Source: Abditibacterium sp. (GTDB lineage: Bacteria; Armatimonadota; Abditibacteriia; Abditibacteriales; Abditibacteriaceae). Taken from it: DNA of 64,000 nucleotides. The stretch spans positions 1,760,001-1,824,000 of the forward strand of contig OZ251992.1 in the NCBI GenBank assembly GCA_965246885.1, written 5' to 3'. Position numbers and translations under genes: made by a program. Below are positions 25,123-31,055 of this stretch, one piece after another (position 1 is the first letter of the stretch; every line of letters starts with the position of its first letter). The notes under the pieces were generated by a model. That model worked only from the letters and a program-made list of their open reading frames with translations, did no database searches and had not been told where the DNA came from.

Positions 25123-26301
25123 ATGAGAATCGCTTTGTTTGCCAGCGCCTTTCACCCCAGTTTGGGCGGCGTCGAAGAGTTGGTGCGCCAACTCGCGCAC
25201 GCGTTGAAGCGGGGCGGACACGACGCTTTCGTCGTTACCGAACGCTGGCCGCGCATCCTTCCTGCTTTTGAAGAATACGAAGGGTTGCACCTCTACCGTT
25301 TTCCTTTTCGCACCCTCGCGGGCGGCTCTCCCCTCAACGTCGCGCGCTCTGCCGCGTCTTTGGCGCTGACTGGCGCGTCCATTCGCCGCGAAGTCGCCGC
25401 CACTCTTGCCAAAGAGCGCGCCGATGTGGTGCATGTTCAATGCGTCAGTAACAATGCCCGCTACGCGCAAGGCGCCGCCAAAACTTTGGGGTTGCCTTTG
25501 GTTGTCACCCTGCAAGGCGAACTGACAATGGACGCCACGCAGCTTTACCAAAGGAGCGAAGCCGCGCGCCAACTGATGCGAAACGCCCTGCGCGGCGCCG
25601 ATTTTATCACCGGTTGTTCGGGCCAAACCGTCCGCGAAGCCGAAGAGTTTCTGGGCGAGCCGTTTGGCAGTCGCGGGCAAGTCGTGTTCAACGGCATCCG
25701 TTTGTCCGACTTCGAGGGCGTCGCGCCGTATCCGCACCCGCGCCCGTATATCCTCGGCATCGGGCGTCATGTCCCGCAAAAAGGCTTCGATGTTCTGCTC
25801 CGCGCCTTCGCGCGTTTGGTCGGGGAAGGCGATGCCACGACCGATTTGCTGCTGGCGGGCGACGGCGCCAATCACGAAGAACTCAAAGCCCTCAGCGCCT
25901 CGTTGGGATTGGATGGTCGCGCGCATTTCGTCGGGCGCGTTGACCGCGCTAAGGCGGTTTCCCTCTTCAATGGCAGCGCGTTTTTCGTGCTCCCGTCGCG
26001 CCATGAGCCGATGGGCATCGTGAACTTGGAAGCGATGGCGGCGGGCAAAGCCGTCGTCGCCAGTCGCGTGGGCGGCGTCCCGGAACTCGTGACCGACGGG
26101 CAAAACGGCTTGCTGGTCGAACCCGACAACGTCGCGGCGCTCCATTTGGCCTTGCAAACCCTCGTGCGCAACCCAACCGAAGCCGCGCGTTTGGGAGCCA
26201 ACGGCGCGCAAAGCGTGCGCGCCTTCGATTGGGACGCCATCGCCGCCCAATATCTCGACGTGTACAACCGCGCCAAGGCGACGCACACCGCGCGCCGTTA
26301 G
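25123..26301 (+). CDS. glycosyltransferase family 4
   Basis: GGVE, NGI, GRHVPQKGFD, LPSRHEPMGIVNLEAMAAGKAVV. Confidence 0.93.
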   Translation: MRIALFASAFHPSLGGVEELVRQLAHALKRGGHDAFVVTERWPRILPAFEEYEGLHLYRFPFRTLAGGSPLNVARSAASLALTGASIRREVAATLAKERADVVHVQCVSNNARYAQGAAKTLGLPLVVTLQGELTMDATQLYQRSEAARQLMRNALRGADFITGCSGQTVREAEEFLGEPFGSRGQVVFNGIRLSDFEGVAPYPHPRPYILGIGRHVPQKGFDVLLRAFARLVGEGDATTDLLLAGDGANHEELKALSASLGLDGRAHFVGRVDRAKAVSLFNGSAFFVLPSRHEPMGIVNLEAMAAGKAVVASRVGGVPELVTDGQNGLLVEPDNVAALHLALQTLVRNPTEAARLGANGAQSVRAFDWDAIAAQYLDVYNRAKATHTARR

Positions 26302-26864
26302 CCGGTGGGAGCGCATCCCGCGACGGCCAAGCGTTGTCGCGTGACGGCCAAGCGTTGTCGCGTGACGGCGGAGCGTTGTCGCGTGACGGCGGAGCGTTGT
26401 CGCGTGACGGCGGAGCGTTGTCGCGTGACGGCGGAGCGTTGTCGCGTGACGGCGGAGTTGTAGGGCTGGCCTTTCGCTGTGTTGAGCACGCGTCTCGCAT
26501 AATTCAGCGTGCTTCTCCCCCTATTTAGCTGGCCTTTCGTGCGATACAGCATGGCCTTCACGGTGTTCGGAGCGGCGGCGGAAGCTCTCATCGCGTCGGC
26601 GGGGGTCTGTAGCGCGTCGGCGGCCCTTTGTTTCTTGCCCCTCGCATCATTTAGCACGCCCCTCGCATCGTTTAGCATGACTTTCGCCCTGCTTAGCTTG
26701 CCCCTCGCGCAATTTAGCATGACTTCCGGGGTGCTTAGCTTGACGGTGGAGGTTTGTTGCTCGACGGTGGGGGTACGGATCGAAGAAACAAGGGGCCACA
26801 GGCAAGCTACAAGGGGCGACAGACGTAGTGAAAAAGGCAACAGACGCCCTTTTTGTCTCCACAA
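26298..26864 (-). CDS. possible heptad-repeat (coiled-coil-like) protein; may be non-coding repeat DNA
   Basis: 188 codons open; LSTPEVM LNCARGK LSRAKVM LNDARGV LNDARGK ... RQRSAVT repeats. Confidence 0.3.
   Translation of the reverse strand: MWRQKGRLLPFSLRLSPLVACLWPLVSSIRTPTVEQQTSTVKLSTPEVMLNCARGKLSRAKVMLNDARGVLNDARGKKQRAADALQTPADAMRASAAAPNTVKAMLYRTKGQLNRGRSTLNYARRVLNTAKGQPYNSAVTRQRSAVTRQRSAVTRQRSAVTRQRSAVTRQRLAVTRQRLAVAGCAPTG
26319..26460. repeat. 21-bp tandem repeat CGTGACGGC(GG/CA)AGCGTTGTCG, about 7 copies; degenerate 21-nt periodicity continues to about 26850
   Basis: units start at 26319, 26340, 26361, 26382, 26403, 26424 and 26445 with no spacers. Confidence 0.9.
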
Positions 26865-27207
26865 GCGCCTTTCTTGCCCTCAGTTACGAAAATAGAATTG
26901 ATTCGGCGCGAGCGCAACTGTTATTAGTCGCGCACAATATCCCCGCTGTCGCCAAAAACGGGCGGGCGGGGCCGCGCAACGTCGCGCGCGTTTCGTTTAA
27001 AATGCTCCCCGTGCCCACACGAAGCTCCGCGCCTGAACTGCAACCCTTGAAAGCCTCGCTCCAATTGGGGAGCGTCGGGCGAGTTGCCGCGACGGGCGCC
27101 GTGAGTGTGCCGATGGCCCGCCCCATCTTCGCCGCGTCCTACCCCAATGAATTGGCAACCGCAATCGAAACTTCGTCGGGCGTGCCGCGTGCTCGGAGGG
27201 GGAACTG

Positions 27208-27702
27208 ATGCTGCGCAACGGCACCGCGCCGCCCGCTTTTCTGCTCCCTGATTCGGATGGGCGCCCGCGTTCGCTGGATGAACTGCGCGCCGAAAAGCCG
27301 CTCGTCGTGCTCTTTTTTCGCGGCGCCTTTTGCGCAACGGCGCGCCGCGATCTGCTGGCGTGGGGCGACCTCTATGAACGCATCGGCTGGCTCGGCGCGG
27401 GCTTGGTTGGGGTGAGTGTGGACGCGCCCGATGAACTGGCGCGCTTGCGAAACACTCTGCAACTGCCCTTTGACTTGCTCAGCGACAGCGACTTCAGCAT
27501 TTCGCGTGCGTGGGGCATCTACGAATCGGATGAAACCGACGCAGGCCCGCAACCGCACGGCGAACCGGGCACCTTCGTCCTCGACCGCAAAGGGAACTTG
27601 GCTTATTCGCAACCCCAAAGCGGCCCCAAAGGAGCCGCCAGCGCCAATGAAATCCTGCTCATGCTCCAGTTGATGAACCGGCAGGACGGCTTTTATTGGT
27701 AA
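27208..27702 (+). CDS. AhpC/TSA peroxiredoxin-like protein
   Basis: APPAFLLPD, LFFRGAFCATA (single Cys), LLSDSD, PGTFVLDRKG. Confidence 0.85.
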   Translation: MLRNGTAPPAFLLPDSDGRPRSLDELRAEKPLVVLFFRGAFCATARRDLLAWGDLYERIGWLGAGLVGVSVDAPDELARLRNTLQLPFDLLSDSDFSISRAWGIYESDETDAGPQPHGEPGTFVLDRKGNLAYSQPQSGPKGAASANEILLMLQLMNRQDGFYW

Positions 27703-27713
27703 AGCCCCGGCAC

Positions 27714-28151
27714 TTACAGCGCGGGGGCAACCTCAATCAGTTCGCCGACGACAAGTGGGGCGCGTTTTTGTTCGAGGGCGTCGCGGCGGTCAATGGCGGC
27801 GACTTCGCGGACTGTCTTTCCTTCGCGGCGCAAAATCGCAGCAAGCGAAGCGACGCAATCTTGCATCGCCGCCGTGCCGCCACTCAGGTTGACGACGTTC
27901 CGCTCTTCGCCCGACGCCGCCAAAAAACGGGCGAGCAAGCGCCCTTCGGCAAAGCCCGCAAGGGGATCGCCCAAGACGTGCGTCTCGAACTCGAAGTTGG
28001 AGTGAAAAAAGCGCGCGGCGTCTAAGGCCGTGCCCAAAGCGGCGATGGCTTCGACCGAGGTGACGACCACCACGCGGTCGGGGCGCGTTAGCAAAATGGC
28101 GGAATACAGCGTGCCGTAGTTAAGTCCCAACGGGGAAAACAAGACTTTCAT
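27714..28151 (-). CDS. stand-alone CARF-domain-like (Rossmann-fold) protein
   Basis: KVLFSPLG beta1-Gly loop, PDRVVVVTS beta2 and VVNLSGGT matching CARF motif II (N/D-x-S/T-G-G); 145 aa with no effector domain. Confidence 0.65.
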   Translation of the reverse strand: MKVLFSPLGLNYGTLYSAILLTRPDRVVVVTSVEAIAALGTALDAARFFHSNFEFETHVLGDPLAGFAEGRLLARFLAASGEERNVVNLSGGTAAMQDCVASLAAILRREGKTVREVAAIDRRDALEQKRAPLVVGELIEVAPAL

Positions 28152-28172
28152 CGGAAAAGTTCGGAAAGTGGA

Positions 28173-28201
28173 TTGACAGGCGCTGCGGTGTTGCTTATAA
28201 T
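28173..28201 (+). promoter_or_regulatory. perfect-consensus sigma70 promoter for the rtcB leader
   Basis: TTGACA-N17-TATAAT. Confidence 0.85.
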
Positions 28202-28239
28202 AGTTCCCCGTCCGCGAAGACCTTCGCAGGAGACCCATC

Positions 28240-28338
28240 ATGTCCGCGCCGCGCCCATTTCTCGCCCACAACCGCCTTCCGCAACCCGGAATAGGTCGGT
28301 CGGCGCGCGCGCTCATCCTTCGGGGCACCCGCTTGTAG
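28240..28338 (+). CDS. putative leader peptide (32 aa) upstream of rtcB
   Basis: RBS AGGAGA then MSAPRPFLAHNRLPQPGIGRSARALILRGTRL*. Confidence 0.55.
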   Translation: MSAPRPFLAHNRLPQPGIGRSARALILRGTRL

Positions 28339-28358
28339 GCGAAAGAATCCACTTTCCC

Positions 28359-28394
28359 GGCGCGAAGGCTTTGGCTTTCGCGCCTTTTTATTTT
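28359..28394 (+). terminator. intrinsic terminator/attenuator in the rtcB leader
   Basis: GGCGCGAAGGC-TTTG-GCTTTCGCGCC followed by TTTTTATTTT. Confidence 0.8.
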
Positions 28395-28478
28395 CCCCAT
28401 CCCGGCCCCGTCGCGTGCGCCCTCTCACAAGAAGCGCCAGCTTCGGGGCAATCGGGACAAAGGTGTGAGAAGCAACCC

Positions 28479-29906
28479 ATGATTACTGGAAAGACATTGA
28501 AGCAACGCGGCTGGAAAGAGGGCCGCACCGTAGGACTCGCCAAAGCCGCCGCCGAAGCACTGAGCGCGCGCGGACTGGACGAGTCGCAAATTCTAAACAA
28601 GCTGGACGAAGTGTTGGCCGCGCCCGCCGCTTATCTAAGCGACGCGACGTTCAACGCGCTCGCCGACGAACTGTTGCGCCGCGAGCGCAACGACAAATCG
28701 AAATTCGACGACGCCCTGCGCGAAACTCCCGTCCCGTTCCCCATTTGGGGCGAGGCCCAAATTGACGCGGGCGCCATCGAGCAGATGCGCAACGCCGCCC
28801 ATCTTCCCATCGCAGTCGCGGGCGCCCTAATGCCCGACGCCCACATCGGCTACGGCCTCCCCATCGGCGGCGTCCTCGCCACGCGCGGCACCGTCATCCC
28901 CTACGCCGTCGGGGTCGACATTGCCTGTCGGATGAAATTATCAATCTATGAATGTTCGCCGATTATCCTTGGTCAGCAGAAGGGGAAGTTTGAGAACGCT
29001 TTGCGCGACCAAACGAAGTTTGGGGCGGGCAAGGCGTGGCACGGGGCGGAACGGCGCGAGCATCCGGTGTTGGACGATCCCGATTGGAACGCTTTCGGTT
29101 TGCTTCGCAAATTGCGCTACAAGGCCGAGGAGCAGTTGGGGACTTCGGGGAGCGGCAACCACTTTGTCGAGTGGGGCGAACTGGAGTTGAAAGAAGCGAG
29201 CGCGGAGTTGGGGTTGGACGCGGGCAAATACCTCGCGCTCCTCTCGCACTCCGGGTCGCGCGGCGTCGGGTTCCAGATCGCCAAGGTGTACTCGAACCAC
29301 GCCAACTCTTTGCATCCCCAACTGGCGGACAAGGTGCGCCACCTCGCGTGGCTGGATATGGACTCCGAAGCAGGGCAGGAATACTGGATCGGAATGGAGT
29401 TGGCCGGTCGTTTCGCCGAAGCCAACCACGCCGTTATCCACCGCGAAGTCGCTAAAGCGGCGGGCCTCAAGGAGATTGCATCCGTCGAAAACCACCACAA
29501 CTTCGCGTGGCGCGAAACGCTATCTGATGGCGGGGAAGAGGTCATCGTTCATCGCAAAGGCGCGACTCCGGCGGGCGCGGGCGTGTTGGGCGTCATCCCC
29601 GGTTCGATGGCCGACGCGGGCTACGTCGTGCGCGGCAAAGGTCTGGCGTCGAGCCTGCAATCCGCTTCGCACGGCGCGGGCCGCAAGTTGGGACGCAAAG
29701 CCGCCATTGGCTCCATCACCAAATCGCAGCGCGACCGGTATGTATCCGAGCGCGGCGTCAAAGTCTTGGGCGGCGGCTTGGACGAAGCGCCGCAAGCCTA
29801 CAAGGACATCGAAGAAGTCATCGCCGCCCAGCGCGACTTAGTGGATGTGTTGGCCAAGTTCTCGCCCAAGATTGTGATGATGGCGGACGAAGCGGGGGAT
29901 GTTTGA
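28479..29906 (+). CDS. rtcB: RtcB family RNA ligase with N-terminal extension
   Basis: MPDAHIGYGLPIGG, GVDIACRM, LGTSGSGNHFVE, HSGSRG, NHHN, VHRKGAT, HGAGR, DEAPQAYK. Confidence 0.95.
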   Translation: MITGKTLKQRGWKEGRTVGLAKAAAEALSARGLDESQILNKLDEVLAAPAAYLSDATFNALADELLRRERNDKSKFDDALRETPVPFPIWGEAQIDAGAIEQMRNAAHLPIAVAGALMPDAHIGYGLPIGGVLATRGTVIPYAVGVDIACRMKLSIYECSPIILGQQKGKFENALRDQTKFGAGKAWHGAERREHPVLDDPDWNAFGLLRKLRYKAEEQLGTSGSGNHFVEWGELELKEASAELGLDAGKYLALLSHSGSRGVGFQIAKVYSNHANSLHPQLADKVRHLAWLDMDSEAGQEYWIGMELAGRFAEANHAVIHREVAKAAGLKEIASVENHHNFAWRETLSDGGEEVIVHRKGATPAGAGVLGVIPGSMADAGYVVRGKGLASSLQSASHGAGRKLGRKAAIGSITKSQRDRYVSERGVKVLGGGLDEAPQAYKDIEEVIAAQRDLVDVLAKFSPKIVMMADEAGDV

Positions 29907-29951
29907 GCAAAACGCAGAAGACCAACCGGGGCCTTCTGCGTTTTGCTTTTC
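29907..29951 (+). terminator. hairpin/terminator after rtcB
   Basis: gcaaaacgcagaag...cttctgcgttttgc followed by tttt. Confidence 0.6.
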
Positions 29952-29963
29952 GAGGAGAACATA

Positions 29964-30413
29964 ATGGAAGAAGAACTCAAGATAATCCCGACGACATACA
30001 AAGCCAAACTGCCGCGCGCGTTATCTTACTCTTGCGGCGCGAAAACGCTTTCCGTAGCATGGCAGGGCGTGCCACAGTTCGACTCTTTCGATCTTCAGTT
30101 TCGTTGCGACGTGCCATTAGAACTTCGGGGTTTTAGTGGACATCGGGACATCCTCTCCGTTTATCTCAGCAAGTGGCACTTCACCCAATCTTCGCGCTTT
30201 TGGGAGGAAAGAGAGGACGGAAAGCTCATGTGGAACATTAACGTCCGTGCTTGTCGGTGTGAAGACGCTCATGAAGTGCGCCAGTGGTTGCGCGACAAAG
30301 GTTTGGGGATGGCGCGTTCGTGGCTTGAACACGATGCTCATCTCAAACGGCAGAGTTCTTGGCTCGCCACATTTGATGAAGATTCGCGCGAGTTCGCCGT
30401 TCGGCATGGCTAA
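29964..30413 (+). CDS. hypothetical protein (lower GC)
   Basis: RBS GAGGAG; 149-aa ORF; IPTTYKAKLPRALSY N-terminus. Confidence 0.65.
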   Translation: MEEELKIIPTTYKAKLPRALSYSCGAKTLSVAWQGVPQFDSFDLQFRCDVPLELRGFSGHRDILSVYLSKWHFTQSSRFWEEREDGKLMWNINVRACRCEDAHEVRQWLRDKGLGMARSWLEHDAHLKRQSSWLATFDEDSREFAVRHG

Positions 30414-30416
30414 CGC

Positions 30417-31055
30417 CTACTTCTTCTCGTTGCGCATCTTGTAAATGGTGCGGACGAGGGTTTCAGCGTCGGGGGCGGCTTCGAGGGCGAGGGCGTCGTG
30501 GACTAACTTCTCGGCTTCGGCGGGTTTGTAGCCCATCAAGCGCAGCAGTTGGATGGCGTCGCCCGCAACATCGTTGTGCATGGCTAAACCGGCGGCTTTG
30601 GCTTGGGCGTCCAAGCCGGAGTCGTTCATCAGAGCGAACTTTTGCAGCTTGCCTTGCAGGGTGGCGACCAAGTCGCGCGCTTTTTGCTTGCCCACGCCGG
30701 GGAGACTTTGCAAGAGCGAGTAGTTGGCGCCTTCAATGGCGGCGGCGAGCGTCGAAACGGGACGGGCGAAGGTCTGCAAGCCGCTTTTTGGCCCCATGCG
30801 CGGCACGAGGAGGAGCTTCTCAAAGAACTCGCGCTGGATGGAGTTTTGGAAGCCGAGCAAAATGGGGGTAGCGCGGTTCTGCTCGGTTTGAAGGTAGTAG
30901 ATGGTGTCGAGGGAGATTTTCTCGCCGAGGGGAGTGGCTTCGAGCGCTTTTTCAACGATGAGGGGAACGGCGATTTCGTAGGTCAGGCCGCCGGTTTCGA
31001 CAAGGAGGGCGCCGTCAACGTGACCGGCGAACGTGCCGGAGATTTTGGAGATCAT
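30417..31055 (-). CDS. ruvA: Holliday junction branch migration protein RuvA
   Basis: MISKISG, GGLTYEI, LLGF...EFFEKLL.V..MGPK, LPGVGKQKA, C-terminal L..MGY domain. Confidence 0.9.
   Translation of the reverse strand: MISKISGTFAGHVDGALLVETGGLTYEIAVPLIVEKALEATPLGEKISLDTIYYLQTEQNRATPILLGFQNSIQREFFEKLLLVPRMGPKSGLQTFARPVSTLAAAIEGANYSLLQSLPGVGKQKARDLVATLQGKLQKFALMNDSGLDAQAKAAGLAMHNDVAGDAIQLLRLMGYKPAEAEKLVHDALALEAAPDAETLVRTIYKMRNEKK

Follow-up and report, generated by a model that had tools for sequence, protein, structure and literature searches.

A stand-alone CARF protein beside rtcB in Abditibacteriaceae: a putative repurposed CRISPR CARF in a translation-stress locus

The carf-rtcB Locus and the rtcB Leader

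The window, i.e., the 64,000-bp stretch of Abditibacterium sp. DNA analysed here, carries two genes arranged back to back. The minus-strand gene, carf (27714–28151), runs for 145 codons from an ATG at 28151 to a stop codon ending at 27714. The plus-strand gene, rtcB (28479–29906), is single-copy and encodes a 475-residue RNA ligase (Pfam PF01139, E 1.6e-81). RtcB residues D120, C150, H228, H257, H339/H340 and H398, which we take to be catalytic, are invariant in 20 family sequences. The genome measures 3.55 Mb in two contigs and is 92.7% complete.

The carf product is a genuine stand-alone CARF protein, i.e., a whole, single-domain protein of 145 residues. The earlier note had described a Rossmann-like ORF of this length with the motifs VLFSPLG, PDRVVVVTS and VNLSGGT followed by Ala; all are present, and the AlphaFold model (pLDDT 94), a wide structure search and Foldseek each return a six-stranded, Rossmann-like CARF fold. 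In the structure search, the first 21 matches are all CARF proteins, including Can2, Csm6, Card1 and Sso2081, with Z scores from 9.1 to 14.6. The top match (Z 14.6) superimposes with an rmsd of 2.6 over 121 residues, and the first non-CARF match follows at Z 8.4. The absence of RtcR structures from the fold matches carries no weight either way; the protein has no match to PF06956 (RtcR). Pfam and NCBIfam return nothing meaningful, and the named homologs are Abditibacterium or Abditibacteriota proteins. TraI matches in a PDB sequence search were set aside as spurious. The gene is not a fragment of a Csx1-like gene, the outcome that the earlier note thought would undo its reading: homologs are mostly 143–145 residues long, and the genome holds no CARF-HEPN remainder.

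No promoter for carf was found by a promoter scan. Downstream, a gene for an AhpC/TSA-like redoxin (27208–27702) converges on carf across an 11-bp gap; it is not a conserved neighbour. Farther along, a 21-bp tandem unit (26322–26457; 6.5 copies, 98% identical) lies just after a glycosyltransferase gene.

The carf ATG lies 21 bp from the −35 box of rtcB, TTGACA at 28173, as had been noted. This box belongs to a sigma-70-type promoter, TTGACA-17-TATAAT (28173–28201, plus strand), which matches the consensus at 12 of 12 positions, is one of only two perfect sites of its kind in the 3.55-Mb genome, and would drive the rtcB leader. Next in the plus-strand leader, on which the earlier note did not remark, are a predicted 5′ hairpin (28211–28232), which overlaps the ribosome-binding site AGGAG (28228–28232) of an upstream ORF (uORF); the uORF itself, a Shine–Dalgarno (SD)-led leader peptide of 32 codons (28240–28338); and an intrinsic terminator (28359–28389) with an 11-bp stem and a T run, lying 94 nt ahead of the start of rtcB. 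The promoter, SD-led uORF and intrinsic terminator expected of an attenuator all lie upstream of rtcB.

The arrangement is shared by relatives. The terminator is found at 23 of 25 rtcB loci (the exceptions being G015, rearranged, and G003, cut), the uORF at 22 of 25 (21 by pattern and G010 by hand; G019 is cut), and the promoter pattern at 20 of the 23 loci having the terminator. The uORFs are 30–45 codons long, end 18–48 nt before the hairpin, and show little peptide conservation. As background, such a uORF precedes 5 of 335 terminator-like sites in the host genome. Hairpins covering the SD sequence much as 28211–28232 does are seen by eye in same-genus relatives.

A candidate antiterminator that looked convincing by eye failed or was marginal in three tests against shuffled controls (beaten by 1/21, 0/22 and 3/22 leaders, the last at the p floor), and the leader of the window scored below its own shuffles (z −1.8). 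Strong pairing of the 5′ arm is lost as a modelled ribosome advances in some relatives, the window not being among them. Rfam yields nothing significant in 26000–31000.

The direct repeat TCGGAAA(A)GT (TCGGAAAAGT/TCGGAAAGT; 28151–28169, plus strand), to which the earlier note drew attention, is indeed present between carf and the rtcB promoter but is not conserved: of 24 other rtcB genes whose upstream DNA was inspected (truncated in two cases), 0 have it. It is probably incidental, and its candidacy as an operator was dropped.

Of the suggestion that rtcB is controlled independently of RtcR, one half stands. RtcR is absent from all 41 genomes searched, with a positive E. coli control. The other half, that CARF is the replacement sensor, is weakened, because rtcB has its own uORF-terminator leader, and this leader is also found, unchanged, in genomes that lack carf (G004, G009, G011 and G021). 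By analogy with known attenuators, the promoter-uORF-terminator leader is likelier than CARF to be the RtcR-independent switch of rtcB, and we regard that role as probable.

Several rtcB loci have features of their own. In G001, G003, G004 and G006, and at L072, L073 and L083, rtcB is interrupted by an insertion at about residue 150. In the four genomes the insertion is in frame (open frames of 718–809 residues). It probably represents an intein placed at the conserved cysteine motif. In G023 (C8:1719030-1720447), rtcB is split into two frames by a frameshift or an assembly error. At L047, L053, L059 and L038, similar palindromic inserts of the CACAGAG...CTCTGTG type lie between the terminator and the rtcB start; these are possibly REP- or MITE-like elements.

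CRISPR Ancestry of the CARF Protein

The CARF protein matches, over its full length, the C-terminal domain of the CARF2 CARF-HEPN-CARF proteins (PADLOC PDLC01839, E 7e-34; positions 380–517 of 518). It carries the motifs of this C-terminal CARF family (PDLC01838-01840), i.e., LGxxG, DP/GF, NLTGGT and DRRxxxEQxxxP. By these sequence features it belongs to a family appended to Csx1-type effectors and is not RtcR-like. Among the best 150 of 432 matches (50%-identity representatives), 111 are C-terminal fusions, 31 are stand-alone, 1 is N-terminal and 7 are partial. Other fusion partners include an NYN domain, the CARF domain in that case being 55% identical, and a Card1-like nuclease. The NYN ribonuclease fusion, P0272 (555 residues), is the closest long relative. 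P0231 and P0261, each about 1000 residues, combine a CARF domain, an HD-CE domain and a C-terminal CARF of the family studied here. No fusion to RtcB was seen among the 115 longer proteins examined.

A genome scan for relatives, limited to the best 80 of 86 loci, comprises 15 host-family loci and 65 from outside, where host family denotes the Abditibacteriaceae-like genomes. Type III genes are found at 53 of the 65 outside loci, and other cas genes or arrays at 7 further ones. The question of whether homologs are linked to rtcB or to type III systems has two answers: the host-family genes are usually linked to rtcB (see below); outside relatives mostly have type III genes as neighbours, and rtcB at 0 of 65 loci, within flanks of at most 8 kb on contigs many of which are shorter. 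A notable parallel is a stand-alone, 145-residue sister, 53% identical, on a contig encoding Cmr5 and Cmr6 (type III-B). The same contig carries another CARF protein and a Csx3-like ORF. A quick tree with many open forks gives the host-family clade a support of 99 and suggests that its sisters are stand-alone proteins. No match to the CARF protein was found in plasmids, phages or viral contigs. Descent from RtcR is not supported: the roots of the protein lie in a type III CRISPR family.

What the parent family does may be read from the company it keeps. In the PADLOC profiles, Csx3, Csx16, Csx20 or Unk can fill the same C-terminal slot in CARF2-HEPN proteins, and Supplementary Table 2 of PMC12669027 gives cA4 degradation as the activity of Crn3/Csx3, Csx16, Csx20 and Crn4/Unk_01. 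By analogy with these occupants of the slot, ring-nuclease activity is plausible for the parent family. Our literature search found no biochemical study or assay of the CARF2 C-terminal CARF family.

Retention and Linkage in the Host Family

carf is present as a single copy in 20 of 27 host-family genomes, several of which are incomplete. Elsewhere in the phylum it was found in 1 of 324 genomes. In 105 genome pairs, dN/dS is 0.176 for CARF (about 0.18) and 0.180 for RtcB, by a rough pairwise estimate with synonymous sites near saturation. A protein from a type III CRISPR family has been retained vertically, under selection, in genomes most of which show no cyclase, as described next. We hold this origin and retention with high confidence.

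The earlier note's statement that no CRISPR is in view holds for the window but not for the genome, where CRISPR loci lie at distances of about 0.74 and 1.33 Mb; both look type I by eye. In one (G000:C1:2529843-2543882), a type I-like cas operon adjoins an array of about 214 repeats; the other array, near C1:3124086 (G000), is short. Neither RAMP nor Cas10 palm profiles match in the host genome at its 92.7% completeness, nor does mCpol, and SMODS is found in 0 of 27 family genomes; PF19810, suggested by the Atlas, is found in 0 of 41 genomes. The host-family carf genes are not located in type III CRISPR loci: 48 of their loci, some of them duplicates, showed neither cas genes nor arrays. Eighteen of the 20 carriers lack type III genes. 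RAMPs together with a strong Cas10 palm occur among the 20 only in G006 and G010, far from carf. Ten family genomes have weak Cas10-palm matches (E 6e-7 at best, most of them partial), which we did not score as Cas10; the nine of these genomes searched for RAMPs (all but G041) have no RAMP match. CRISPR-free members of such families have precedent: according to PMC12409355, 25% of Csx15 cases are in genomes that lack type III.

A residue of the first loop has changed in the host family. At position 11, 92% of 142 outside domains carry Ser, as do 63 of 65 rows of a second alignment; the 120 family sequences carry Ala (38%), Asn (32%) or Ser (25%). From these alignments, the loop serine appears nearly invariant in outside relatives and relaxed to variable in the host family. 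By its position, Ser11 may correspond to S11 of the ring nuclease Sis0455, described as key to substrate binding and catalysis there (PMC9638899). The CARF protein of the window has Asn11 and, after GGT, Ala94, where the family has Thr or Ala. Judged by positional equivalence, it thus has neither the first-loop Ser nor the Lys after the GG motif that mark Crn1. The Ala that the earlier note took for a departure from the usual Lys/Arg is real but not peculiar, because Thr takes the place of Lys/Arg throughout the family, also in its CRISPR-linked members; we no longer count the missing basic residue as a special feature. Nor are Tyr12 and the ARFFH stretch host-family innovations: Tyr12, and a stretch similar to ARFFH, are also found in the CRISPR-linked sister.

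CARF might still be a ring nuclease, or a sponge, for cyclic oligoadenylate, damping type III systems that arrive sporadically by horizontal transfer. The PADLOC slot shared with the cA4-degrading proteins points this way, as do the retained G9, G13, GGT and DRR residues and the type III loci of two carriers. Against these stand the 18 of 20 carriers without a type III match, selection on carf as strong as that on rtcB, and the replacement of Ser11 in both type III carriers (Ala in G006, Asn in G010). Such a role is improbable.

The neighbourhood of carf gives another kind of evidence. In 12 of 19 relatives, carf is back to back with rtcB (divergent, 319–596 bp), so the adjacency seen in the window is conserved across genera, and the earlier note's fear that homologs might never be linked to rtcB is laid to rest. 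The pair persists at less than 600 bp in four of six genera. In three relatives, insertions have moved the genes 2.9, 4.5 and about 10 kb apart without changing their divergent orientation; the genes are unlinked in G015 and G017, and in two more relatives the loci run into contig ends. A metagenome search returned 16 loci, some near-duplicates, from which two outgroups and four short or cut loci were set aside; of the 10 evaluable host-type loci, 4 show the adjacency and 6 are unlinked. The counts overstate the case, because kin are not independent. The linkage is real and inherited within one family, but not obligatory.

Could carf be a passenger, with a conserved job unrelated to RtcB, such as binding another nucleotide? 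The unlinked genomes and metagenome loci are what such a reading predicts, as are the absence of rtcB near outside relatives in the best 80 of 86 loci and the unchanged leader of genomes that have rtcB only. In addition, rtcB is present in 24 of 24 relatives searched, whereas 7 of the 27 family genomes lack carf; and in G021, one of the latter, rtcB faces clpC directly, so that CARF could be a passenger. A divergent pair could also be preserved by overlapping promoters alone: the carf start is about 20–90 bp from the rtcB promoter in many genomes, which makes the two genes hard to separate. Yet the pair has kept its divergence across insertions and four genera while other neighbours were scrambled, and we consider the passenger reading somewhat unlikely.

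The second conserved neighbour is clpN/clpC. In 8 of 19 relatives, carf lies directly upstream of it on the same strand, the two starts being no more than 800 bp apart; with a limit of 3.5 kb, the count is 10. The same arrangement is seen at 4 metagenome loci and at L085, and in G006 the carf and clp reading frames overlap. All other neighbours occur at 3 of 20 loci at most, except for a prepilin-like family at 7 loci, read as multi-copy. The clpC link is nearly as strong as the rtcB link. CARF could be the first gene product of a carf-clpN/clpC unit, serving ClpC proteolysis as an adaptor or as a ligand-gated regulator, with rtcB merely the divergent neighbour. In the host genome, however, clpC lies about 680 kb from carf while rtcB has stayed adjacent, and we know of no precedent for a CARF-Clp partnership. 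We judge this proposal, too, to be of low probability.

A Proposed Role and Its Known Counterparts

Most of what is known of CARF domains concerns the reading or destruction of CRISPR second messengers. RtcR is, to our knowledge, the main example of a CARF tied to RNA repair. Against this background, the linkage of carf and rtcB hints at a novel function under stress to RNA or ribosomes, and the preferred reading is as follows. An ancestor of the host family would have acquired a small stand-alone CARF of the kind found in type III CRISPR loci, in which such proteins probably bind or degrade cyclic oligoadenylate, and would have kept it after that signal was lost. Synteny suggests that the ancestral order was rtcB ← → carf-clpC. 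CARF would now reside in a stress locus in which rtcB is switched on by its own leader, without RtcR. Transcription from the sigma-70 promoter would normally stop at the terminator behind the translated uORF, and read through when uORF translation is disturbed; the leader elements are observed, and the switch is proposed by analogy.

CARF itself is most likely a homodimer that would bind, and at most slowly cleave, short RNA or oligoadenylate pieces. Candidate ligands are pieces with 2′,3′-cyclic phosphate ends, arising from the same ribosome or RNA stress. CARF would then be an accessory binder beside RtcB and ClpC rather than the transcriptional sensor of rtcB. The proposal that a free CARF senses or clears a signal while RtcB repairs the RNA is thereby narrowed: its roles as an RtcR-replacing sensor and as a ring nuclease are both weakened, the latter because 18 of 20 carriers show no cyclic-oligoadenylate synthase and the loop serine is relaxed.

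Seen from its sequence and setting, CARF looks like a CRISPR protein put to new use at a translation-stress locus. The explanation taken as a whole falls a little short of an even chance. The part of CARF in RNA-damage handling is tentative, and a functional tie to RtcB is, if anything, more tentative. A specific version is possible but doubtful. In it, a ring-nuclease-type CRISPR CARF, domesticated as a housekeeping factor for RNA damage, would bind or process 2′,3′-cyclic-phosphate RNA ends for RtcB, or gate ClpC in response to such ends, and a leader that senses ribosomes would set the induction of the locus.

If this version is true, it describes a second, independent CARF-RtcB partnership, convergent with RtcR; and if CARF handles RNA ends, defence signalling has been linked to RNA repair a second time. 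A 145-residue CARF under strong selection without a cyclase, together with a 53%-identical CRISPR-linked sister, makes a clean pair for asking how a CARF pocket comes to take a different ligand. With its leader, the host family joins the lineages in which translation, and not RtcR, appears to control rtcB. We found no paper on the Abditibacteriaceae CARF clade or on a CARF-rtcB pairing, although existing classifications may cover the family.

Four known systems invite comparison. The nearest is the C-terminal CARF of the CARF2 CARF-HEPN-CARF (Csx1/TM1812-like) proteins, to which the host protein is related over its full length, by shared motifs, and by its identity to the stand-alone member on the type III-B contig. 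It differs in that the host gene is vertical and single-copy, has relaxed Ser11, and adjoins rtcB and clpC with no cas gene nearby.

The Crn1 ring nucleases Sso2081 and Sis0455 (CARF_m13) are likewise stand-alone CARFs (7ygh: Z 13.4, rmsd 2.5 over 135 residues). Identity to them is only about 20%, they are not the top match by a margin, and most carriers of carf lack a source of cA4. Sis0455 uses the basic residues R105/K106 after GGT (PMC9638899), whereas the host CARF has no basic residue there.

The RtcR-rtcBA regulon resembles the locus in that a CARF gene is divergent from rtcB. RtcR is a CARF fused to a sigma-54 AAA+ activator; unlike it, the host protein has neither AAA+ nor HTH domain and no PF06956 match. 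The promoter here is of the sigma-70 type, although the genome has sigma-54. RtcA is not found in the host genome and is over the cut-off in 7 of 27 family genomes. A CARF-RtcB link gains plausibility from the report, in PMC9650030, that the RtcR CARF binds RtcB and tRNA fragments, even though it belongs to a different CARF family.

The closest counterpart of the leader is the PA5471.1/armZ attenuator of Pseudomonas aeruginosa. There, according to the accessible text of PMC12057347, in which no CARF gene is mentioned, the leader peptide PA5471.1 controls armZ, an RtcB-like ligase gene, and read-through on ribosome stalling is proposed but needs confirming. In both cases a uORF and a terminator precede an RtcB-like gene; the host uORFs, at 30–45 codons and with little peptide conservation, are the longer ones.
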